IMG/VR virus record: IMGVR_UViG_2657245124_000006
From: a virus
Taxonomy: Duplodnaviria > Heunggongvirae > Uroviricota > Caudoviricetes
Reading direction: 5' to 3' (one strand)
Length of the DNA: 24,063 bases
The notes below the pieces were generated by a model, which searched no databases, had not been told where the DNA came from, and saw only the letters and a program-made list of their open reading frames with translations. This document shows, in pieces, positions 1 to 14,499 of the stretch; within the stretch, counting starts at the first letter, position 1; each line of letters opens with the position of its first letter. The position numbers were made by a program, and so were the translations under genes.

Positions 1-468
1 TTAATTTAATCGGCTACGATAAAAGTCTCTTGTTATGTTGCGATCGATGACTACTTCACAACGTGCTGAAGGTCTGTAACCCTCACGAGCCTTAATCCAT
101 GGTTCTTCTTTATGAGTCATATCTTCAAGTTGTGCGCCAGAAAAAGCACCGTAGACTTCAAGAACGCCATCAATATGAGCTGCGGTTGCGGCTGGAATGG
201 ATGAAAGATCAAACCCAGGAGTGCGATCTGCAATCGTTATGTCCGAATACAGTGATTTTGTAGAAGAGAACCGGTTATAAATCGCACGGCTTACTGGGCC
301 ATGAATCCAAGCTTGAAACTCCTCATCCACTAACTTTTTATCGAAAAAAGCTAGATACCAAGCATCTGCGTAATAAGCTAATTTTTGCAGCTTCAAATTA
401 GACATAGTTTCACCTGAAGCTAAGATTTTTGTGATGATGTAATCACATAATTGGTTAATATTTATCAT
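1..468 (-). CDS. Panacea-domain (DUF4065) protein, GepA/SocA-like putative antitoxin
   Basis: 155 aa, ATG at 466-468, AGAGGGA ribosome-binding site upstream. The segment 'LKLQKLAYYADAWYLAFFDKKLVDEEFQAWIHGPVSRAIYNRF' matches the DUF4065 signature as I recall it. Stop codon is at window positions 1-3. Confidence 0.7.
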   Translation of the reverse strand: MININQLCDYIITKILASGETMSNLKLQKLAYYADAWYLAFFDKKLVDEEFQAWIHGPVSRAIYNRFSSTKSLYSDITIADRTPGFDLSSIPAATAAHIDGVLEVYGAFSGAQLEDMTHKEEPWIKAREGYRPSARCEVVIDRNITRDFYRSRLN

Positions 469-633: not shown

Positions 634-1653
634 TTACGTAGTTACCATAGTTGCTAATGGATTAAAACGTAGCGCTGTTTCTAGGTGGTCAGGAGCCAGA
701 TGAGCATAGCGCATGGTCATTTTTATGTCGTGATGCCCAAGGATTTTCTGCAGAGCCAGGATGTTTCCGCCGGACATCATAAAGTGTGCTGCGAACGTAT
801 GACGCAGAACGTGTGTTAGCTGACCGCGTGGAAGCACAATAGAAGTCTTATCCATTACAGATAAAAACTGGAAGTAGCAGTCAGTGAAGAAATTGAAACC
901 GTCTAGGGCAATGATTTCCTCATACAGCTCTTTGCTAATCGGAATGCTTCGGTTCTTTTTGCCTTTGGTCCTGACGAATGTGATCCGGTATTTCGTAACC
1001 TGAGAACGGGTTAGGTTCACAGCTTCGCGCCAGCGTGCTCCGGTGCTCAGACAGATTTTAACGACAAGAGCGAGCAGGGGACTTTGGCGGTTGCAGTCGT
1101 ACAATAGCTCGGTAATTTGTTCATGCGTCAGCCAGGCCATCTCCTTTTCTGCGATGGTGAATTTTCGCATGTTCTCCAGTGGGTTCGGATACGACCATTC
1201 GCCCAGGCGGGATAGTTCGCTAAAAACACTACTTAGATAGCTTTGCTCCAGGTTAATGGTGACCGGGCTTGCTCCTTTCTTCCATTTCTCGCTGAAGTAG
1301 ATCTCGCCTGTCAGGCGTTTATCTCGATAGTGGGCAAACATTTTAGAGGTGAGATCAGTTGCAAGGGGATTGCCCAGAGCGTCAACCATCAGCAGCAATT
1401 TGTCATAGACATGCTGCCCAGCAGTCAGTGATTTACCATGTAGTTTGAACCATAGCTCAACCACGTCTTTTAGTGTTCGACGATCCACTGATTCACCTAG
1501 CCAGGGCTTTGCTTCGGTTTCTTCCATCGTGTGACGCTCAAAAGCCAGTGCTTCGCCTTTGGTGGCGAATTGTTTACGCACACGACGCCCACTACGTCCG
1601 GCGGGGTAACATTCGCAAAGCCATTTTCCTGTGGTGAGTTTTCGTACAGCCAT
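634..1653 (-). CDS. int: Tyrosine site-specific integrase, P2-type
   Basis: 339 aa from ATG at 1651-1653 ('MAVRKLTTGKWLCECYPAGRSGRRVRKQFATKGEALAFE'), GGAGGG ribosome-binding site 9 nt upstream. C-terminal 'LRHTFAAHF...GHHDIKMTMRYAHL' carries the R/H/R/Y catalytic residues. The ORF-track start at 1809 is probably an upstream over-extension. Confidence 0.9.
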   Translation of the reverse strand: MAVRKLTTGKWLCECYPAGRSGRRVRKQFATKGEALAFERHTMEETEAKPWLGESVDRRTLKDVVELWFKLHGKSLTAGQHVYDKLLLMVDALGNPLATDLTSKMFAHYRDKRLTGEIYFSEKWKKGASPVTINLEQSYLSSVFSELSRLGEWSYPNPLENMRKFTIAEKEMAWLTHEQITELLYDCNRQSPLLALVVKICLSTGARWREAVNLTRSQVTKYRITFVRTKGKKNRSIPISKELYEEIIALDGFNFFTDCYFQFLSVMDKTSIVLPRGQLTHVLRHTFAAHFMMSGGNILALQKILGHHDIKMTMRYAHLAPDHLETALRFNPLATMVTT

Positions 1654-1841
1654 AAAAAATGCCCTCCAATAGAGAGCATTTTTACTGTATGTATAACCAG
1701 TGTCAATATATGAAATCCTGCGACCATACATCTCACTGAAGCCATAATGAAGTAGGCTATTCTTTTTGCTATGTGAGCATGTAACTTTTGCGGTTAACCT
1801 GTGGCTCATTTTTATTTTAGGCGCAGATATAAAAGCAAAAG

Positions 1842-2033
1842 TTATCGTGAGTTTTTAGTACAGATTTTTTTGGATTTACTAATAGTTCCATCATTGCAAA
1901 CGAATTTGCCATCTGAGGTACAGTGAGAAACACCTCCCTTTTTCCCTGAGCAGGGATAATTTCTAGCATAGGTAGCTAGTGGGTTTAATAACAAAGAACA
2001 TGACAAAACCACAAAAAATACCTTACCAAGCAT
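1842..2033 (-). CDS. Small secreted cysteine-containing protein (63 aa), candidate lysogenic-conversion moron
   Basis: ATG at 2031-2033 with a strong GGGAGGAAATT ribosome-binding site. It starts 16 bp after the CI stop, same strand. N-terminal signal-peptide-like stretch '[23 protein letters not shown]', then a ~40-aa mature part with 4 Cys. AT-rich codons. Confidence 0.55.
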
Positions 2034-2048
2034 AATTTCCTCCCGGTA

Positions 2049-2618
2049 CTATTTAACATACTTGACTGTTAAACTTATAATTTTACCAATTATTTCAATG
2101 TCTTCTATCTTGCATTCGAAGGCTCTGTTTCCACCCTCGACGAAGATTCTTCCACCGGGTAAACGAGTAATGTCACGGATCGTTATTTCGCCATCAATAC
2201 TTATTACCCATTTACCATCACGTATATCATCAAATTCCTTATCACAAATAAATTCAGAATTATTATCTGTGATTACAAAAAGATTCTTGAATGCCGACGG
2301 TAGAAATTCTCTATCGAAAATATAAAAACCGTCTTCACACAAGGCCCCATCAGATAATACATATTTAGCAACTTCCATAGTATTTGTATTACCTGAAGTT
2401 TGCTTTGAACCATGCCCGGTTGTGAGCCAATTAAGCGAGGTGCCTGTTTCAAGGGCGCACTGGATTACCCATTCTGCTGGAAATGAGTCACGCATGTAGC
2501 GTGTGGCGAGTGTACTTTTAGAGATTCCTAAATGATCGCACAACGCCTGTCGAGTCTTGAATCCATAAGCTTCTACCATGCGCTCTATAGCGCCTCGTCC
2601 GCCTTTCTCCAAATTCAT
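2049..2618 (-). CDS. cI: Immunity repressor, phage 186 CI-like (HTH plus C-terminal domain)
   Basis: 189 aa from ATG at 2616-2618 (track start at 2624 is GTG). GGAG ribosome-binding site upstream. HTH segment 'TRQALCDHLGISKSTLATRYMRD'. Sits between int and the divergent apl/cII genes; size matches 186 CI (192 aa). Confidence 0.8.
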   Translation of the reverse strand: MNLEKGGRGAIERMVEAYGFKTRQALCDHLGISKSTLATRYMRDSFPAEWVIQCALETGTSLNWLTTGHGSKQTSGNTNTMEVAKYVLSDGALCEDGFYIFDREFLPSAFKNLFVITDNNSEFICDKEFDDIRDGKWVISIDGEITIRDITRLPGGRIFVEGGNRAFECKIEDIEIIGKIISLTVKYVK

Positions 2619-4571: not shown

Positions 4572-4798
4572 TGGCTGATGCAATGGATCTCGTACAGCAG
4601 CGCGTTGAAGAAGAACGCCAGCGCCATATCCGTGCTGCCCGTGCCAAAACACCGGGCGTGTCTCGCGTGCTTTGTATTGAATGTGAAGCGCCAATTCCGC
4701 CAGCACGCCGCCGCGCCATTCCTGGAGTGCAGCTTTGCATTACCTGCCAGGAAATCGCAGAGCTGAAAGGCAAACATTACAACGGAGGTGCTGTATGA
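4571..4798 (+). CDS. TraR/DksA-family C4 zinc-finger protein
   Basis: 75 aa; 'CIECEAPIPPARRRAIPGVQLCITC' gives C-x2-C-x17-C-x2-C, the TraR/DksA spacing. ATG at 4571. Confidence 0.8.
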   Translation: MADAMDLVQQRVEEERQRHIRAARAKTPGVSRVLCIECEAPIPPARRRAIPGVQLCITCQEIAELKGKHYNGGAV

Positions 4799-5652
4799 GC
4801 ACCATCCTGAAATGGGCGGGTAATAAAACCGCCATTATGTCCGAACTGAAAAAATACCTTCCTGCTGGCCCGCGACTGGTTGAACCTTTCGCGGGTTCTT
4901 GTGCTGTGATGATGGCGACGGATTACCCCAGCTATCTGGTTGCGGATATTAATCCTGATTTAATCAACCTCTATAAAAAGATTGCCGCTGATTGCGAAGC
5001 GTTTATATCTCGTGCCAGAGTTTTATTTGAGGAAGCAAACAGTGAGCTGGCTTATTACAACATAAGACAGGAGTTTAATTACTCAACTGAAATTACTGAT
5101 TTCATGAAGGCGATATATTTCCTGTATCTCAATCGTCACGGTTACCGTGGTTTATGTCGCTATAACAAGAGCGGGCATTTCAACATTCCCTACGGTAATT
5201 ATAAAAATCCGTATTTCCCTGAAAAAGAAATTCGCGCATTTGCAGAGAAAGCCCCGCGGGCAACGTTTATCTGCGCCAGCTTTGATGAAACGCTGGCGAT
5301 GTTGAAGGCGGGGGATGTGGTGTATTGCGATCCGCCGTATGACGGTACGTTTTCCGGCTATCACACTGATGGTTTCACTGAAGATGACCAGTATCACCTG
5401 GCATCCGTTCTTGAACATCGGTCATCAGAAGGTCATCCGGTCATTGTTTCTAACAGTGACACATCCCTGATTCGTTCGCTGTATCGCAATTTCACTCACC
5501 ACTACATCAAGGCAAAACGCAGCATCGGCGTGTCGGCTGGCGAGAGTAAATCTGCAACAGAAATCATTGCTGTTTCCGGGGCGCGCTGCTGGGTGGGATT
5601 TGATCCTTCGCGTGGCGTGGATAGTTCTGCTGTGTACGAGGTGCGTGTATGA
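4795..5652 (+). CDS. dam: DNA adenine N6-methyltransferase, Dam (D12) family
   Basis: 285 aa from ATG at 4795 (GGAGG ribosome-binding site). Motif I-like '[10 protein letters not shown]' and catalytic 'DPPY' ('YCDPPYDGT'). Start overlaps the upstream stop (ATGA); stop overlaps the repA start. Confidence 0.88.
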
Positions 5653-8063
5653 GTCATGCCGATATGAGCGACTCTAGCGGCTTTAACGAGGCCGCTGCAG
5701 CATTTTCATGGAACGGCCCGAAAAAGGCCATAAACCCTTATCTGGACCCGGCGGAAGTTGCGCCGGTTTCTGCGCTTTCAAACCTGATCACTCTGTATGC
5801 TGCCGATAACGAGCAGGAACAGCTGCGCCGCGAGGAATTGAGTGAACAGGTCTGGGAGCGTTATTTCTTTAATGAATCCCGTGATCCTGTCCAGCGCGAA
5901 ATGGAGCAGGATAAGCTCATTAGTCGGGCAAAGCTGGCGCATGAGCAGCAGCGTTTTAACCCGGACATGGTCATTCTGGCGGACGTCAGCGCCCAGCCCA
6001 CCCACATCAGCAAGCCGCTGATGCAACGTATCGAATACTTCAGCAGCCTGGGCAGGCCAAAGGCTTATTCCCGCTATTTGCGTGAGACGATTAAGCCATG
6101 TCTGGAGCGACTGGATTGTGTACGCGACAGTCAGCTATCTACTTCTTTCCGTTTTATGGCAAGCCATCAAGGGCTGGAGGGCCTGCTGATCCTGCCTGAA
6201 ATGAGTCAGGATCAGGTGAAACGCCTGTCCACCCTGGTAGCTGCGCATATGAGCATGTGTCTTGAGGCCGCTTGTGGTGATTTGTATACCAACGATGACG
6301 TAAAGCCAGAAGAAATCCGCAAGACATGGGAAAAGGTGGCAGCGGAAACCCTGCGTCTGGATGTTATCCCGCCTGCGTTTGAGAAACTTCGTCGGAAAAG
6401 AAACCGCCGCAAACCTGTGCCCTATGAACTCATACCGGGTTCGCTGGCACGTATGCTTTGCGCCGACTGGTGGTATCGAAAATTGTGGAAGATGCGTTGC
6501 GAATGGCGGGAAGAGCAGTTGCGTGCTGTCTGTCTGGTCAGCAAAAAAGCATCTCCCTATGTCAGCTATGAAGCCGTGATGCATAAACGTGAGCAGCGCC
6601 GCAAGTCGCTGGAGTTTTTCCGTTCTCATGAACTGGTGAACGAAGACGGAGACACGCTGGATATGGAAGATGTGGTAAACGCCAGCAGCAGCAACCCGGC
6701 ACATCGCCGCAATGAGATGATGGCCTGCGTTAAAGGTCTGGAGCTTATCGCGGAAATGCGCGGTGACTGCGCCGTTTTCTACACCATCACATGTCCGTCA
6801 CGTTTCCATTCCACGCTCAATAACGGCAGGCCCAACCCGACCTGGACAAATGCGACGGTAAGACAAAGCAGCGATTATCTGGTCGGCATGTTTGCTGCAT
6901 TTCGTAAGGCGATGCACAAAACCGGGTTGCGCTGGTATGGCGTACGGGTGGCTGAGCCGCACCATGACGGTACTGTGCACTGGCATCTCATGTGTTTCAT
7001 GCGCAAAAAAGACCGCCGCGCCATTACTGCATTGTTGCGTAAGTTTGCCATCCGTGAAGACCGCGAGGAGCTGGGCAATAACACGGGCCCACGCTTTAAG
7101 TCTGAGCTGATAAACCCACGCAAAGGAACGCCGACAAGCTACATCGCAAAATACATCAGTAAGAACATTGACGGGCGTGGTCTGGCTGGCGAGATCAGCA
7201 AGGAAACGGGTAAATCCCTGCGTGATAACGCCGAATACGTTAATGCCTGGGCGTCTCTGCATCGTGTTCAGCAGTTCCGCTTCTTTGGTATTCCGGGGCG
7301 CCAGGCTTACCGTGAACTGCGATTGCTGGCTGGTCAGGCGGCAAGACAACAGGGTGACAAAAAAGCAGGTGCGCCGGTACTGGATGATCCGCGTCTTGAT
7401 GCCATCCTGGCTGCTGCTGATGCTGGTTGTTTTGCCACCTACATCATGAAGCAGGGCGGCGTACTGGTTCCCCGCAAATATCACCTTATCAGAACAGCTT
7501 ATGAAATTAACGAAGAGCCGACTGCCTATGGCGATCACGGTATTCGTATTTATGGCATCTGGTCACCCATTTCAGAGGGCAAGATCTGCACTCATGCAGT
7601 GAAGTGGAAAATGGTTCGTAAGGCCGTTGACGTTCAGGAGGCGGTAGCCGACCAGGGCGCTTGCGCCCCTTGGACTCGTGGCAATAACTGTCCCCTTGCT
7701 GAAAATTTGTACCAACAAGGGAAAGACAAATCAGCTGATGGGGGCTCCAGAACGGACATTACCCGCATGGATGACAAGGAATTGCACGATTACCTGCACA
7801 GTATGAGCAAAAAAGATCGCCGGGAGCTGGCAGCAAGGTTGCGCTTGGTGAAACCGAAACGGCGTAAAGACTACAAACAGCGAATTACAGATCATCAGCA
7901 TCAGCAGCTCGTCTATGAACTGAAGTCCAGAGGATTTGATGGCAGCGAGAAAGAAGTCGATTTGCTCCTTCGCGGTGGCAGTATTCCGTCAGGAGCAGGC
8001 TTGCGTATCTTCTATCGGAACCAGCGTTTGCGGGAAGATGATAAGTGGCGGAACCTGTATTAA
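5649..8063 (+). CDS. A: Replication initiation protein, P2 gpA-like rolling-circle HUH endonuclease
   Basis: 804 aa. HUH-like 'VHWHLMCF' and two-tyrosine motif '[12 protein letters not shown]'. Position matches P2 gene A. Confidence 0.85.
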
Positions 8064-8915: not shown

Positions 8916-9446
8916 TTAACCTTGTATAGTTATTTGAATATTTTCTTCATTGACACCAAAGTATAGGGCTAGCCCTGCTTTTGCCTCCTGAAGTGTTAAC
9001 GGCTTAACTACATTTTCTTCTTCTTCTTCGTACTCATCACCCGCTTGATCGACAATCGAATTAGTCGGGGTTAATTTTGGAAGAGCTTTAAATTCCAACT
9101 TGTCAGCCTCAATGCCAATGTCTTTGAGGTTGCGATAAGAAACGGGATTCCGATTGCCATCCCATTGTCCTGGGATGTCAATTTCAGCATAAGAATTGAT
9201 GTTTATGATCCAGCGTTTAGGGTTTTCTGGAGCCCTGCTTACTCCCGAGATTCGACCGATCATAAAAGCATGATGATGTTTTGCTTCTTGTGATCCCCAG
9301 TCCTTTCTCGAATTTTGTACACAAACTAAATATTCGTGCTTAGCTGCATGGCTGGCGTCAAGTCTCCATGCTTGGCTTCCCCCTGTGTTCAAAATCTCTG
9401 TTAAACCACGAGCAGTAAGTACAGTAATACAGTTGGTAGTAGCCAT
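8916..9446 (-). CDS. Uncharacterised 176-aa protein, cargo gene at the phage right end
   Basis: ATG at 9444-9446, no competing frame, AT-rich. Acidic patch 'DEYEEEEEN'. I recognise no family. Transcribed divergently from the OLD-like gene. Confidence 0.6.
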   Translation of the reverse strand: MATTNCITVLTARGLTEILNTGGSQAWRLDASHAAKHEYLVCVQNSRKDWGSQEAKHHHAFMIGRISGVSRAPENPKRWIININSYAEIDIPGQWDGNRNPVSYRNLKDIGIEADKLEFKALPKLTPTNSIVDQAGDEYEEEEENVVKPLTLQEAKAGLALYFGVNEENIQITIQG

Positions 9447-9763
9447 TGAATTGTGACCCCGTCTTTTTTAGAGAAATACTATTGATGAATGTAGTTTACG
9501 TATTTTTTTATTGAGTAGTCAAGTTAGTATTCTGCTCGTTATTGGCTGTTTTTTGAGTGTTGTGAGTTAGTACTTTGTGTAGTACCTCTTGGTTTATGAG
9601 GGTTAAATCTAAGTTATGACAAAGGGAGGCAGGGGGAACGCGCAGCGCAAGGTGTACAGGAGGCCATAAGGACTCACTTGAAGTAAGAAAAGATCGATAA
9701 AGCAACAATGCATGTCTATGCCGCATGAATTCGCATGATCGTTTGAGGATCGTTTTAGCTGAG

Positions 9764-9791
9764 GCCCGCTAGGAATGGCGGGCTTTTGTTT
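9764..9791 (+). terminator. Rho-independent terminator
   Basis: GCCCGC - TAGGAATG - GCGGGC followed by TTTTGTTT. U-tract is on the + strand only. Confidence 0.6.
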
Positions 9792-9832
9792 ATGTCATGC
9801 AAGTGCATGAAAACCACTACATAAAGCGGGCA

Positions 9833-9851
9833 GGCGTGGCGGGGATACGAG
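9833..9851. other. Putative cos (cohesive-end) site of the P2/186 family
   Basis: GGCGTGGCGGGGATACGAG. The first 13 nt match the P2/186 cos motif GGCG(A/T)GGCGGGGA as I remember it. Located left of Q/P, where cos is expected. From memory, not a database hit. Confidence 0.45.
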
Positions 9852-9888
9852 CGCGCGCTGGGAGGTATAAGAATGAAGTACAATTAAC

Positions 9889-9916
9889 TTCACTTTGTTG
9901 AGTAAAATGCTATAAG
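9889..9916 (+). promoter_or_regulatory. Putative promoter of the OLD-like gene: TTCACT - 16 bp - TGcTATAAG
   Basis: -35-like and extended -10-like elements about 70 bp upstream of the 9983 start. Confidence 0.35.
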
Positions 9917-9982
9917 AATAATGCAAATTATTGAGTCCCATTAGTTCAAAACTTAGGGATATCTTATGTGAAAGGAGGTTAT

Positions 9983-11668
9983 ATGTTAGATAAATTGATT
10001 TTTAATTCAGGAAGTAATCCAACATCTAAATCTTCATTATCGGTTGACTTGACTCCATTGACAATTTTTGTGGGGCCGAATAATAGTGGTAAATCTAGAG
10101 CTTTAATCGATATAGAAAATCAACTGACAACCCGAAATGCAGCGCAGGGAGAAGTAATAAAACAGATATTAATCAAACCACTTTCTGAGGATGAAGCAAA
10201 AAAGGAAATTGAATCTTTACAAGTTGAGCCAAACCAGGATGAAAAGCATGCGGGGCATGTTGTTTTATCTAGGCTAAACCTCCGTGGTGAAGGAATATCT
10301 AGGATTCTAGTGTATTTGGATGGAATGTTAAGAGAATTCCAGCAACCCAATGAATTCAATCGGGAGCATCTATATCAATATTACTCGTTGCTGACTCTAA
10401 GGTTGGATGGTAGAAGTCGACTTTCCTTAACTTCAAGTCAAGGTTCATCCGATTTACAAGGAGAACCTACGAATAACCTTTCATTTCTTTTTAAAAATAA
10501 TAAAGCAAGGATGGAGCTAAGAGATATCGTTTTTGATGCTTTCGGGAAGTATCTTGTTATTGATCCAACAAATATAGGTTATCTTAGAATTCGTCTTTCT
10601 GAGCGCGCTCCTGAGACTGAACAAGAAGAAAGAGGTTGGGATGAAAAGTCAGTGCTTTTTCATTCAAAAGCGTCATTGATTACAGAGGCTAGCGATGGTG
10701 TTAATGCTTTTGTTGGGATGATGATTTCGCTGATAGTTGGCTCACCAAAGGTGACTCTAATTGATGAGCCGGAAGCTTTTTTACATCCATCCTTATGCTC
10801 AAAGTTAGGAAAGGAAATATCTAGGATTAGTGCTCATAGTAATAAAAATGTGTTTATTTCAACGCATAGCGCTAATTTTTTAATGGGTTGTGTTCAAGGT
10901 AAAGTGCCATTGAATATAGTTAGGCTTACTTTTGATGGTAAATCTGGTACGTCTAGATTACTAACAAAGGAACAATTGACGCCGCTCATGAGAAATCCGT
11001 TATTAAGATCTATTGGTGTGCTAAACGCATTGTTTTATAATTACGTTGTCGTTACTGAAGCGGATGCAGATAGGGCATTTTATCAAGAGATTAATGAGCG
11101 CTTATTGGCTGCTGGAGATCCTCGGGGTATTGAGGGATGCCTGTTTTTGAATGCTCAAAACAAACAAACTGTTTGGGATATAGTAAAACCCCTTCGTGAG
11201 CTAGGTATTCCCTGCGTTGGAGTGGTAGATATCGATATATTGAAGGAGGGAGGAGTTGTATGGAAAAAACCAATGCTTGGAGCTTTTTTTCCAGAAATGA
11301 AGCATGAAACTTTAGGTTTGGAAAGACAAAAGCTTTTTCAAGCCTTCAAAAATACGAATAAAAATATGAAGACAGATGGGGGCCTCTCCTTGTTATCGGG
11401 TTCAGATAAAACCGCCTGCTCTGAGTTTTTTAAATCCCTTTCAGATTATGGGGTTTTTGTCGTTCCAACGGGCGAGATCGAGTCTTGGTTGCAAAATCTT
11501 GAAATAGGTCGAGGAAAGAATACTTGGTTAACAAGTATTTTCGAGAAGATGGGGGATGATCCTAATGATGAATCATATGTGAAGCCATCTGAAGGTGATG
11601 TTTGGGATTTTATTGGGAATATAAAGCACTGGTTGGTTAACCCTGAAAGGAAGGGTATTCCCGAGTGA
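9983..11668 (+). CDS. OLD-family / AbiL-like predicted nuclease (ABC-type ATPase plus C-terminal Toprim-like domain)
   Basis: 561 aa from ATG at 9983 (AGGAGG ribosome-binding site; track start at 9968 is GTG). Walker A 'GPNNSGKS', Walker B/D-loop 'VTLIDEPEAFLHPS', H-loop-like 'ISTHSAN'. C-terminal 'VVVTEADAD' and 'VGVVDIDIL' fit a Toprim E...DxD pattern. Very AT-rich. Confidence 0.8.
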   Translation: MLDKLIFNSGSNPTSKSSLSVDLTPLTIFVGPNNSGKSRALIDIENQLTTRNAAQGEVIKQILIKPLSEDEAKKEIESLQVEPNQDEKHAGHVVLSRLNLRGEGISRILVYLDGMLREFQQPNEFNREHLYQYYSLLTLRLDGRSRLSLTSSQGSSDLQGEPTNNLSFLFKNNKARMELRDIVFDAFGKYLVIDPTNIGYLRIRLSERAPETEQEERGWDEKSVLFHSKASLITEASDGVNAFVGMMISLIVGSPKVTLIDEPEAFLHPSLCSKLGKEISRISAHSNKNVFISTHSANFLMGCVQGKVPLNIVRLTFDGKSGTSRLLTKEQLTPLMRNPLLRSIGVLNALFYNYVVVTEADADRAFYQEINERLLAAGDPRGIEGCLFLNAQNKQTVWDIVKPLRELGIPCVGVVDIDILKEGGVVWKKPMLGAFFPEMKHETLGLERQKLFQAFKNTNKNMKTDGGLSLLSGSDKTACSEFFKSLSDYGVFVVPTGEIESWLQNLEIGRGKNTWLTSIFEKMGDDPNDESYVKPSEGDVWDFIGNIKHWLVNPERKGIPE

Positions 11669-11675
11669 GTTTATT

Positions 11676-11700
11676 GAGCCGCTTTAGCGGCTCTTTTCAT
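11676..11700 (+). terminator. Rho-independent terminator after the OLD-like gene
   Basis: GAGCCGC - TTTA - GCGGCTC followed by TTTTCAT, sitting between the convergent OLD-like and Q genes. Confidence 0.6.
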
Positions 11701-11704
11701 ATTC

Positions 11705-12733
11705 CTATGCAAGGTTATATTCATTAAATTGCATTATTGGCTCCTTTATCCATTCATTTACTTCTTGAAGCCTTTTTTGCAATGGAATTAGCTCATTACG
11801 GACAAAGACCCTGCTGGCTTTCTCCACATCCCCAAATCCCCCGACATTATTTGGCATTATCCCCATCATTTGTGGCGGCACACGATGCGCAGCCATCATG
11901 TCATCCCGGCTCACGTTCTTGATATTCAGAAACTCATCCTTCGCCGCGACTTCTGACAACGGGATGATCTGAAGCCCGTCCTTTTTGCCGTTAGGCGAGT
12001 ACATAAACAGGTTGCGGAAGTTGCCAGGGCCTTTGGCGCTTTTCATCGCATTGCGGAGGTTGTTCACATCCTCCTGGTTCTGCGCGGCATCGGTCATGTA
12101 CATGATGAAGCCTGCATGACTGCCGTTAATGTAATACTTCCGGCGGAACAGCGTGGCGGACTCGTTGAGCAGGGCTGACGGAATGGCAGAAAGATAACCT
12201 GGCAGGCCGTAGATCTCCTGGTTGATGTCAGGTTCCATCAGATGAAAAATGCTGCCTTTCGTGAACTGATACGGCTGGGTTGTCATACCGTATTGCACAA
12301 ACCAGTAGGTATCCAGGTCTAACCCGCGTCGGGTGTATTTTGCCAGCGCAGGCTCAAGGGCTATAACTTCACCGAATCGGTTCGTGCGTTTCTCCAGGTA
12401 GGCGTTACCAAATACCAGATAGTCCTGCACAAAACGCGAAAAAGCCTGTTGGCTGAGCAGCGGATGAGGGATATAGGTACTGGTCAGAATGTTGCACTTT
12501 ACTGCAATCGGGGAACTGTGATGCACGGCAGCCCGGAAGGTGCGCGCCAGTCCGTCAAAACTTACGGGTGGCTCATACCAGCGATCCGTCTGTACGCATT
12601 CTACATAGTCCAGCAGTTCGCGGCGGTCCAGTACAGGAATGGGATCACCAAAGCTGAAAGCTTCGGCTGAAGTTTGATTTTTATGCTGGCTCCGTTTCGT
12701 CGCAGCAGCGCGGTTTTTCTTACTCTTTCCCAT
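11705..12733 (-). CDS. Q: Portal protein, P2 gpQ-like
   Basis: 342 aa from ATG at 12731-12733 (track start is TTG). Same size and position as P2 Q. Start overlaps the P stop. Confidence 0.9.
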   Translation of the reverse strand: MGKSKKNRAAATKRSQHKNQTSAEAFSFGDPIPVLDRRELLDYVECVQTDRWYEPPVSFDGLARTFRAAVHHSSPIAVKCNILTSTYIPHPLLSQQAFSRFVQDYLVFGNAYLEKRTNRFGEVIALEPALAKYTRRGLDLDTYWFVQYGMTTQPYQFTKGSIFHLMEPDINQEIYGLPGYLSAIPSALLNESATLFRRKYYINGSHAGFIMYMTDAAQNQEDVNNLRNAMKSAKGPGNFRNLFMYSPNGKKDGLQIIPLSEVAAKDEFLNIKNVSRDDMMAAHRVPPQMMGIMPNNVGGFGDVEKASRVFVRNELIPLQKRLQEVNEWIKEPIMQFNEYNLA

Positions 12734-14499
12734 CAAAAAATCTCCACAATATTGCTGGTATTGGCGGACTCGCCCTGCAGCGGTTCGTTAAACAGTGCGT
12801 GCATTGTTGCCCAGGCCAGATCGGCGTGGCTGGCTTCTTCGCTGCGGCTAGCTTCATAGGTCGGGCGGTTGCCGCTGGCGGTGGTGGCGCGACGGATTGC
12901 CATGAATGACTGCGCAATGTCGGTGTGCCCGGCGTCAAACTCCAGACGGCGGTGGCTGATAATGTCGTAGGCCTTGAGTACCAGGGCGTTTTTAACGTTG
13001 GGGTTGTAGACAAACTCCCGGACGGCAGGAAAGAACGCTTTCACGTTCTCATAAACCCCGTGACCGACGCCTGTCGAGTCGATGCCGATATAGGTCACGT
13101 TGTACTGCTCGGTCAGTTTTTTGATTGCATCAGCCTGGGCGCGGAAGTCCATCCCGCGCCACTGGTGACGCTCAAGAATGCGAAACTTACCGCCTGGCAC
13201 GGCTGGCGGTGCCACCACCACGCATCCGGCGCTGTCGCCATTCTGCGTACCTTTTGCCGGGTCATAACCGATCCACACCTCGCGCCAGCCAAACGGGCGC
13301 AGGGCCAGTGCATGAAAGTCGGTCCAGACTTCCCAACTGTCCACCATGCACGCCTGCAGCTCGCTGAGCGGAAACACGGATGCGAGATCGTCCACAAACT
13401 CGCACATCAGCAGGTTCTGGTATTCGTCCGGGCTGTACTCCATGCGTAGCTGGTCGAGGTCGAACAGGTTACAGCCGCCGCGCACCGCATCTTCCACGGT
13501 GACTATCTGGCGGTATTGCCCGTCTGCGCACAGCAGGCCGGGGGCCAGATTGCTGTGGGACAGGTCGATGTCCACCTTATCGGCTTTGTTGCGCCCACGG
13601 TTGAACAGCGCACCGGACCAGAACGGATAAGCACTGTGTGTCAGACTGGATGGCGTGGAAAAATAGGTTTGTCGCCATTTTTTGTGAATAGCCATACCGG
13701 AAGCCACTTTGCGCAGCTCCTGGAATTTCGGTATCCAGAAATATTCATCCAGATACAGGTTGCCGTGGTAACTCTGGGCCGTGCGGGCATTGGTGCCGAG
13801 GAAGTAAAGCGTGGCCCCGTTAGGAAGCACCATCGGATCGCCTTTCAGCTCCACCTCCACTTCTTTGGCAAAGTCGATGATGTACTGTTTAAAGACGTGG
13901 GCCTGAGCCTTGCTGGCAGAAAGGAAAATCTGGTTACGCCCGGTCAGCAGGGCGTCAATCAGGGCTTCACGGGCAAAGTAAAAGGTCGCGCCGATCTGGC
14001 GTGACTTCAGCAGGTTGCGGATGCGGTTGGTTTTTCCGGCTTCCCACCAGTGGCGCTGGTAGTTGAACATAGAGGAATGGAAGATTTCTTCCAGTTTCTC
14101 AATCTGTTCATCGGTGAAAACATTCTTTTCCGGCTGACGACGTGGGCCTTTGTTGCGGTTGGCAACGTTAGGGTTTAAGTCGGCTTCGTTGCCGCCATTG
14201 TTAAACTTGCCGATCCGCGCGTGGCGCTCAGACTGGCGTGCCAGCAGGTCAATTTCTTTGAAATCTTTCCCTTCTTTGTGCTCCTTCATAATGAGCTGGC
14301 AGTAGCGTGCGGCGGTGGTGAGCTGCATCTGATCCAGCGGCCCATAGTCACCCCACTTGTCGCGTTTTTTCCAGCTGTGAACGGTTGCAACTTTCTCGCC
14401 CAGCATTTCAGCAATGCGGGCGACGCGGTATCCCTGAAAGTACAGCAGCATGGCCTGCCGACGGGGATCGAGATCTGCGGGTGTCAGTGTGGTGTTCAT
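12733..14499 (-). CDS. P: Terminase large (ATPase) subunit, P2 gpP-like
   Basis: 588 aa, ATG at 14497-14499. Divergent from O as in P2. Confidence 0.9.
   Translation of the reverse strand: MNTTLTPADLDPRRQAMLLYFQGYRVARIAEMLGEKVATVHSWKKRDKWGDYGPLDQMQLTTAARYCQLIMKEHKEGKDFKEIDLLARQSERHARIGKFNNGGNEADLNPNVANRNKGPRRQPEKNVFTDEQIEKLEEIFHSSMFNYQRHWWEAGKTNRIRNLLKSRQIGATFYFAREALIDALLTGRNQIFLSASKAQAHVFKQYIIDFAKEVEVELKGDPMVLPNGATLYFLGTNARTAQSYHGNLYLDEYFWIPKFQELRKVASGMAIHKKWRQTYFSTPSSLTHSAYPFWSGALFNRGRNKADKVDIDLSHSNLAPGLLCADGQYRQIVTVEDAVRGGCNLFDLDQLRMEYSPDEYQNLLMCEFVDDLASVFPLSELQACMVDSWEVWTDFHALALRPFGWREVWIGYDPAKGTQNGDSAGCVVVAPPAVPGGKFRILERHQWRGMDFRAQADAIKKLTEQYNVTYIGIDSTGVGHGVYENVKAFFPAVREFVYNPNVKNALVLKAYDIISHRRLEFDAGHTDIAQSFMAIRRATTASGNRPTYEASRSEEASHADLAWATMHALFNEPLQGESANTSNIVEIF

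Follow-up and report, generated by a model that had tools for sequence, protein, structure and literature searches.

What does a P2-like prophage carry between its cos packaging site and its portal gene Q, and does the gene found there belong to the phage backbone or to its exchangeable cargo? The question is raised by the virus record IMGVR_UViG_2657245124_000006, a stretch of DNA of 24,063 nucleotides (nt) which is analysed here in full and referred to below as the window. The window is a P2-like (Peduoviridae) E. coli prophage, 100% identical to strain 1297KP, with its integrase end adjoining rcdA/ybjJ. An original prediction, made from the letters of the DNA, had described a self-contained OLD-family gene (an ATPase plus a Toprim nuclease domain) inserted between cos and Q, with its own promoter and a flanking terminator, and had left the subfamily open. 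The results below identify the gene product as a stand-alone OLD-family nuclease and the gene as part of a mobile unit that includes cos itself; its role is probably anti-phage defence.

An OLD-family nuclease without a partner gene

The open reading frame (ORF) extends from the ATG at 9983 to the stop codon at 11666–11668 on the + strand and encodes 561 amino acids (aa). RefSeq gives identical coordinates and names the protein (WP_057698812) 'ATP-dependent nuclease'. An in-frame GTG at 9968 is possible as an alternative start, but it overlaps the Shine-Dalgarno sequence AGGAGG, which lies 4 nt ahead of the ATG. Because of the position of this sequence, and because RefSeq has the same start, the ATG is preferred and the GTG is unlikely. 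The four motifs on which the prediction was based are all present, namely GPNNSGKS (aa 31–38), LIDEPEAFLHP (aa 259–269), TEADAD (aa 358–363), and DID (aa 416–418). Their key residues are invariant in a family alignment of 43 sequences with identities down to 52%, a degree of conservation that is not a matter of chance.

Profile searches assign both halves of the protein. Pfam AAA_15 and AAA_21 match the N-terminal part, and OLD-like_TOPRIM matches aa 350–418 with 23.5 bits, against a gathering score of 23.2. Because this score is marginal for the single protein, the 43 family members were scanned as well, and OLD-like_TOPRIM is matched by all of them. DUF4435, from which the OLD Toprim had to be separated, has no match at E ≤ 1 in the protein and none at E ≤ 0.01 in the 43 relatives. 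Among the PADLOC models, Old scores best (1.3e-20, over aa 254–515), as compared with 3.9e-10 for GajA, and the matches to the PADLOC models AriA, AriAB, AbiLi, PtuA, and HEC-01A are confined to the ATPase. No NCBIfam model comes close to its cut-off; the retron Eco8 effector model (NF038234) scores 31.2 bits versus 250, and the transporter models score at most about 23 bits.

The catalytic residues may be assigned by alignment to P2 Old. The residues of P2 Old that are required for the killing of recBC hosts are K37, D299, H306, H332, E398, D453, D455, E402, D541, E543, and K550 (Schiltz et al., PMC7049728). In the BLAST and profile alignments, they pair, in this order, with K37, D261, H268, H295, E359, D416, D418, D363, E498, E500, and R510 of the 561-aa protein. 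On this assignment, the ligands of metal A in the Toprim domain are E359, D416, and D418, those of metal B are D363, E498, and E500, and R510 (or K512) is the counterpart of P2 Old K550 and of R487 in the Thermus scotoductus OLD (TsOLD). In the 43-sequence alignment, K37, D261, E262, H268, and H295 of the ATPase are invariant, and so are E359, D416, D418, D363, and E500 of the Toprim domain. E498 is shared by 90% or more of the sequences, and R510 is only the majority residue at its position. All the paired residues except R510 are therefore invariant or at least 90% conserved. Because the essential residues of P2 Old have such conserved counterparts, the full ATPase and two-metal Toprim machinery is intact.

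The two domains also contain characteristic insertions. In the ATPase region, about 200 aa are inserted between Walker A and the signature motif, the equivalent place in TsOLD being occupied by its dimerisation domain. In the Toprim domain, a helical insert of about 75 aa, as judged by the secondary structure of the model, separates the DxD strand from the GEIE strand.

An AlphaFold2 model built from the family alignment has a pLDDT of 88.8 and a pTM of 0.87. When it is compared with the PDB by Foldseek, TsOLD (6P74) ranks first, followed by the retron Eco8 OLD and GajA, and all three alignments are full-length. The fold of the ATPase head also resembles the heads of SMC, Rad50, and ABC proteins, but a match across both domains is limited to OLD proteins. 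ABC transporters match the ATPase head alone, so that the best match is not the non-defence ABC ATPase against which the prediction had warned. Searched by sequence, the PDB gave no match to the single protein, and its matches to the family profile were marginal and at the ATPase motifs only (TsOLD, E 7e-4). Because the sequence searches are nearly blind in this respect, the link to the solved OLD structures rests on the fold search, and the clade must be regarded as far from every solved OLD. With an N-terminal ABC-type ATPase, a C-terminal OLD-type Toprim domain, and the two-domain fold, the protein is a member of the OLD family. The architecture originally proposed is thus borne out by Pfam, PADLOC, the alignments, and the fold search.

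The OLD classes are defined by genetic context, and Class 1 comprises those encoded by a single gene (PMC10568477). Neighbouring genes were clustered for 109 loci that carry homologues at an identity of 33% or more. No family was present in more than nine of these loci, and no helicase, reverse transcriptase, or AriB recurred; the P2 portal and terminase were the neighbours seen most often. No conserved neighbour or partner gene was seen in three diverse annotated genomic contexts. The window contains no helicase, reverse transcriptase, or AriB ORF, the Rfam and tRNA scans of it were empty, and the gene is flanked by cos on one side and by a convergent portal gene on the other. Since no partner gene recurs in the 109 loci or lies in the window, the published definition puts the gene in Class 1.

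The other classes were considered and rejected. For Gabija (Class 2), there is no adjacent GajB UvrD-like helicase, the downstream gene being the convergent portal gene, and the GajA model is matched less well than Old. For a retron Eco8-type effector (Class 3), the score is far below the cut-off, and neither a nearby reverse transcriptase ORF nor an Rfam match was found. For PARIS (Class 4, AriA/AriB or the fused AriAB) and AbiL, there is neither a separate AriB nor a DUF4435, and the AriA, AriAB, and AbiLi matches cover the ATPase only. The subfamily question can therefore be answered. PADLOC, NCBIfam, alignments, and neighbours place the protein among the stand-alone (Class 1) OLDs, in a clade separate from P2 Old, YbjD, GajA, the Eco8 effector, and PARIS.

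The clade is large. A word-indexed search retrieved 3529 proteins at E ≤ 1e-5, most of them of about 560 aa, and an exhaustive search of 50%-identity representatives gave 894 clusters at E ≤ 1e-30. Members occur in Proteobacteria, Bacteroidota, Cyanobacteria, Gemmatimonadota, Acidobacteriota, Planctomycetota, Bacillota, and Patescibacteria, as well as in viral contigs. Some bear misleading names in public databases that reflect the ATPase half only, such as 'cobalt transporter ATP-binding subunit' and 'energy-coupling factor transporter EcfA2'; others are 'ABC-type cobalamin/Fe3+-siderophore transport ATPase' and 'AbiEii toxin'.

A mobile unit in a two-slot hotspot

The gene lies between cos and Q, as had been stated. 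The cos site is recognised by its near identity to a sequence of phage Cartapus that is annotated as 'putative cos site', and its predicted 19-nt cohesive end, GGCGTGGCGGGGATACGAG, is at 9833–9851 and matches P2 cosL at 14 of 19 bases; the portal gene follows on the opposite strand. In P2, the 167 base pairs (bp) between cosL and Q hold only the tQ terminator, in agreement with the earlier statement that P2 has no gene there, and tin and old are located across cos. On a larger scale, the gene sits between the replication gene A and Q, next to cos. This gpA-gpQ locus of P2-like phages is an established defence hotspot (Rousset et al. 2022, PMC9122126; PMC9519451; PMC13586616). Related phages have unrelated genes in place of the OLD gene, and AIPR, Abi-alpha, TIR, DUF4145, or HIRAN genes are carried at the same site by other P2-like phages. 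By its location, its adjacency to cos, and the swapping of its contents, the gene is therefore cargo of this hotspot.

The exact protein has been listed before. WP_057698812 is present in Table S5 of Rousset et al., where it is labelled only 'AAA_15/AAA_21/SMC_N', without comment (PMC9122126). The curated arrangement no. 95 of the same study, with the same label and 34 occurrences, differs from this sequence by one substitution within the part that is stored (PMC9122126). The OLD/Toprim identity of the protein was not recognised in that table. Position, architecture, and acquisition as a module thus stand as originally read, but the novelty of the finding is lowered, because the slot is the published gpA-gpQ hotspot and the protein itself is on record. 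The 'Old-family endonuclease' from the screen of Vassallo et al. was also checked against this gene, and it is P2 Old itself.

The base composition and the distribution of the gene are those of an acquired module. Its G+C content is 0.37–0.40, versus 0.52–0.63 in the structural genes, and it is found, at an identity of at least 99.9%, in only 19 of 5426 complete E. coli genomes. In 18 of the 19 carriers, the homology to the window starts at about 9709, just left of cos, and the cargo to the left of cos is different. Conversely, the left-hand cargo of the window (8650 to about 9870) is found in at least seven other genomes. In E. coli MS1665 (4855–6506 of the locus examined), the slot equivalent to 9870–11700 is filled by a hypothetical gene and a gene for a HIRAN-domain protein, and the left-hand cargo is the same as that of the window. 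A Cronobacter chromosome is homologous to exactly 9776–11697 of the window. The span comprises a cos in decayed form, followed by leader, gene, and hairpin.

From the homology boundaries in E. coli and the span of the Cronobacter homology, it follows that cos, leader, gene, and terminator make up the mobile unit, and that the P2 hotspot has two slots, one on the left and one on the right of cos, which exchange their cargo independently. The low G+C content, the mapped boundaries, and the cargo swaps bear out the reading of the gene as an acquired module. In P2-like viral contigs with portals 47–100% identical to that of the window, homologues of 35–100% identity are located in the hotspot by the portal gene, and in most cases directly adjacent to it.

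Three further observations concern copies and relatives of the gene. The copy in Cronobacter dublinensis (5794–7715 of its locus) is 77.5% identical at the nucleotide level and 88% at the protein level. It lies by itself between rcdA and ybjL, with a mutated cos core and no phage genes around, and is probably all that is left of a P2-like prophage. In the window, rcdA likewise flanks the int end of the prophage. In E. coli MB30 (NZ_CP073968.1, 3105353–3108238), the OLD gene is interrupted by an IS5-like ISKpn26, a natural knockout. In other viral loci (L121–L135), more distant OLD-like proteins with 22–26% identity to the 561-aa protein adjoin gpA in other P2-like contigs; those of them that were detected by P2 Old are only 27–28% identical to it and hence are not its orthologues either. 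Because these proteins are distant from both the 561-aa protein and P2 Old, the P2 hotspot carries at least three separate OLD-like lineages.

The signals around the gene were examined separately (Table 1). Downstream, an intrinsic terminator starts 8 nt past the stop codon. Its hairpin (11676–11693) has a G+C-rich stem of 7 bp and a folding energy of -14.2 kcal/mol (z -4.06), and it is followed by a T-run on the + strand only. The Cronobacter copy of the gene is likewise accompanied by it. Identification of this hairpin with the backbone tQ terminator of the P operon was rejected, as P2 tQ differs in sequence and has its T-run on the other strand, and Cartapus lacks a hairpin at this place. 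The hairpin belongs to the OLD module, and the flanking terminator originally proposed is supported by the scan, the folding energy, the strand of the T-run, and the co-travel with the gene. Near the left edge of the module, where the E. coli homology in the 18 genomes (about 9709) and the Cronobacter homology (9776) start, there is another hairpin, at 9761–9786.

The promoter is less certain. A candidate was picked by hand in the leader, with TTCACT at 9889–9894, a spacer of 16 nt, TATAAG at 9911–9916, and an extended-10 TG at 9908–9909, but it is not conserved in Cronobacter or in the viral relatives. A consensus scan found no sigma-70-like promoter between cos and the ATG. The 'own promoter' of the original prediction is therefore putative. 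That the gene has one is a reasonable inference from its isolation only, since it is insulated by cos, by the upstream hairpin, and by a neighbour on the opposite strand.

Table 1. Coordinates of the OLD module and its surroundings in the window
Feature	Position	Strand	Description and basis
Hairpin near left edge of module	9761..9786	+	hairpin rich in G+C with T-run behind it, just left of cos; terminator-like site in scan, -20.5 kcal/mol, z -3.65
cos packaging site	~9803..9860	.	near-identical to annotated site of Cartapus; core kept in related loci
Leader	9861..9982	+	AT-rich, ~120 bp, with candidate promoter and Shine-Dalgarno AGGAGG (9973-9978); read from sequence
OLD-family ATP-dependent nuclease gene	9983..11668	+	Class 1, 561 aa, WP_057698812; ORF, RefSeq, domains, alignments, model
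ABC-type ATPase region	9983..11029	+	~aa 1-349
Walker A	10073-10096	+	G31-S38
Walker B and catalytic Glu	10751-10774	+	V257-E264
Other ATPase motifs	within ATPase region		signature-like SDG at aa 237-239; D-loop His H268; H-loop His H295
OLD-type Toprim nuclease domain	11030..11518	+	~aa 350-512; Pfam, profile alignment to P2 Old, conservation, model
Intrinsic terminator	11676..11700	+	GAGCCGC-TTTA-GCGGCTC, then TTTTCAT; scan, fold
Portal gene Q	11705..12736	-	backbone gene bounding the slot, outside the module; Pfam Phage_portal, RefSeq

Two other places in the window may be related to defence. At 1–468 (- strand), together with a gene just past the start of the window (1258–2486 of the extended locus), a Panacea-domain protein and a hypothetical gene are encoded between rcdA and the prophage integrase. 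A minor defence hotspot at int-att has been described for P2-like phages (PMC13586616), and the pair may be a PanA-type toxin-antitoxin system located in it. At 4735–5652 (+ strand), a gene for a DNA adenine methylase lies in the early operon, overlapping and directly upstream of the replication gene A. Its product could modify the DNA of prophage or host and thereby affect restriction or modification-dependent defences.

Proposed function and its alternatives

We propose that the gene is a self-contained moron of the P2-like prophage, and that its product is a stand-alone OLD enzyme which would protect the lysogen from other phages by abortive infection. The probability of this reading is estimated at about 0.75. 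It is supported by the conserved active site, the stand-alone status, the location in the hotspot, and the nature of the gene as an acquired module. It is also supported by the fact that Class 1 OLDs defend alone, as P2 Old (PMC12445682), Vc OLD (PMC12392090), and YbjD (PMC13261556) do.

By analogy to TsOLD and P2 Old, the protein would probably dimerise through the insertion in its ATPase head, and the binding and hydrolysis of ATP by the dimerising ABC heads would gate the nuclease. In the lysogen, the enzyme would be made from a promoter of its own and be harmless until a cue of infection is received. After the cue, the two-metal site of the Toprim domain would cut a double-helical nucleic acid, with R510 or K512 stabilising the transition state, and the cleavage would stop translation or replication and so abort the infection. 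As to the substrate, a tRNA stem (the target of P2 Old and AriB) and DNA to be nicked (the target of Vc OLD and GajA) are given roughly even odds.

Several observations weigh against a role in defence, or at least against its details. Many homologues are located in ordinary chromosomal contexts and not in recognisable defence islands, and the archaeal Cran1 is an OLD-family ATPase with a non-defence, cell-cycle role. The protein is missing from the table of cloned and tested systems of Rousset et al. (PMC9122126). With the negative promoter scan, expression in the lysogen is an assumption. Furthermore, the similarity to P2 Old, the nearest characterised OLD, amounts to 24% identity in the C-terminal half only, so that substrate and trigger would not be transferable from it.

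Within the defence reading, two kinds of mechanism may be distinguished, either of which is proposed tentatively. The enzyme may be a guard of RecBCD similar to P2 Old, by which inhibition of RecBCD by an infecting phage would lead to the cutting of tRNA anticodon stems and to the shutdown of translation. P2 Old is the sole characterised OLD that is found by the family profile (48.6 bits), with all its catalytic residues paired; it cleaves tRNA-Thr(UGU) and requires its ATPase to do so; and both genes are single-gene cargo of the same hotspot. The low identity and an ATPase insertion that cannot be aligned speak against such a guard, however, as does the fact that the two genes differ in orientation and are separated by cos. 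Other Class 1 OLDs also behave differently, Vc OLD being a RecBCD-independent nickase and YbjD sparing recBC cells. The other possibility, also held at modest odds, is a Class 1 OLD that targets DNA and nicks or degrades the replicating phage DNA as Vc OLD, GajA, and TsOLD do. The top structural matches (TsOLD, GajA, and the Eco8 OLD) cut DNA, the two-metal site was defined on DNA substrates, and Vc OLD provides an example of single-gene defence by DNA nicking. Nevertheless, P2 Old and AriB use this fold and active site to cut tRNA, so that structural similarity is blind to the substrate, and beyond the motifs there is no sequence similarity to TsOLD, GajA, or the Eco8 OLD.

The remaining alternatives depart further from the proposed role. 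A non-defence function, be it DNA processing or repair, a prophage-stabilising toxin, or a cell-cycle role like that of Cran1, is considered quite unlikely. The unusual conservation of the family (more than 50% identity across phyla), its frequent chromosomal location without defence neighbours, and the precedent of Cran1 for housekeeping by OLD ATPases are in its favour; yet the patchy distribution in E. coli, the swapping against unrelated defence genes in the hotspot, the low G+C content, and the interruption by an insertion sequence in one strain are typical of accessory defence cargo. Adjacent to the OLD gene across cos, the window encodes at 8916–9446 a divergent 176-aa PUA-like (EVE/YTH-fold) protein, and since this fold serves as a reader domain in modification-dependent nucleases, the two might constitute a two-gene system of a modified-base sensor and an OLD effector. 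This is highly improbable. The two genes occur together in only one of the 5426 genomes, the OLD gene has other left-hand cargo in 18 genomes and the 176-aa gene has other right-hand cargo in at least seven, the Rousset table puts the OLD protein beside a HEPN_LA2681 gene, and the 176-aa family is not among the recurring neighbours in the 109 loci. The 176-aa gene as a functional partner is effectively refuted by this independent assortment. An identity as an ABC-transporter ATPase, or as a fused PARIS- or AbiL-type ATPase with DUF4435, is scarcely credible and is refuted by the results on domains and context. It is suggested by the names of some homologues ('cobalt transporter ATP-binding subunit', 'EcfA2', 'AbiEii toxin') and by weak matches to ABC_tran and transporter models over the Walker B and signature region, but these matches extend over only about 60–150 residues and are far under the cut-offs, no permease neighbours are present in the window or in the three annotated contexts, and the C-terminal 210 residues are an OLD Toprim in all 43 members, with DUF4435 in none.

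The clade may have a trigger and/or a substrate unlike those of P2 Old, Vc OLD, GajA, Eco8, and YbjD, and would then be a one-gene abortive-infection system of a new mechanistic type, although we regard this as rather unlikely. If it is true, the gene would be an easily tested, phage-borne member of that type in E. coli. Class 1 is the least understood class of OLDs, with phenotypes for three members only (P2 Old, Vc OLD, and YbjD), each of which works differently. A compact, natural one-gene module from a very widespread clade therefore offers a handle on how stand-alone OLDs sense infection and on the choice between tRNA and DNA as their substrate. In addition, the locus illustrates the two-slot P2 hotspot neatly; otherwise, it confirms the published view of swappable defence genes beside cos.

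Comparison with known OLD proteins

Like the gene described here, TsOLD is a stand-alone gene, and it is the best structural match over the full length. The sequence similarity of the two proteins is limited to the Walker motifs. The Toprim insert is longer here, with about 80 residues between DxD and the metal-B motif versus about 45 in TsOLD.

Vc OLD and YbjD are likewise single-gene Class 1 OLDs, with demonstrated anti-phage phenotypes. Vc OLD, from Vibrio cholerae, is a RecBCD-independent DNA nickase that acts as a single-gene defence (PMC12392090). In YbjD (OldB) of E. coli K-12, the anti-phage phenotype does not depend on the Toprim domain, and recBC cells are not killed (PMC13261556). 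YbjD is not detected by the family profile, and no relationship to it is detectable at the sequence level. P2 Old, in turn, senses the inhibition of RecBCD and cuts the tRNA-Thr(UGU) anticodon stem in an ATPase-dependent manner (PMC12445682). As the mechanisms of Vc OLD, YbjD, and P2 Old differ from one another, none of them is transferable to the 561-aa protein.

P2 Old is the closest of the three, and its published phenotypes are the exclusion of lambda, the killing of recBC hosts, and the cleavage of the tRNA-Thr(UGU) stem (PMC7049728; PMC12445682). It is likewise a single-gene protein of ABC ATPase and Toprim (586 aa versus 561 aa here) and accessory cargo of the gpA-gpQ hotspot in P2-like phages. 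BLAST to P2 Old (UniProt P13520) gives 24% identity over aa 254–544, and the family profile pairs its positions 256–543 with residues 294–582 of P2 Old. The homology extends from Walker B to the C-terminus and includes the long helical insert between the DxD and the metal-B strands, but it is confined to this C-terminal half, and the insertions in the two ATPase regions are not alignable. The genetic arrangements differ as well: P2 old is found left of cos and shares its transcription with tin, whereas the gene in the window lies to the right of cos, is transcribed toward Q, and has no tin-like partner. Because of the limited identity, the opposite side of cos, the other orientation, and the lack of tin, the 561-aa protein is not an orthologue of P2 Old.

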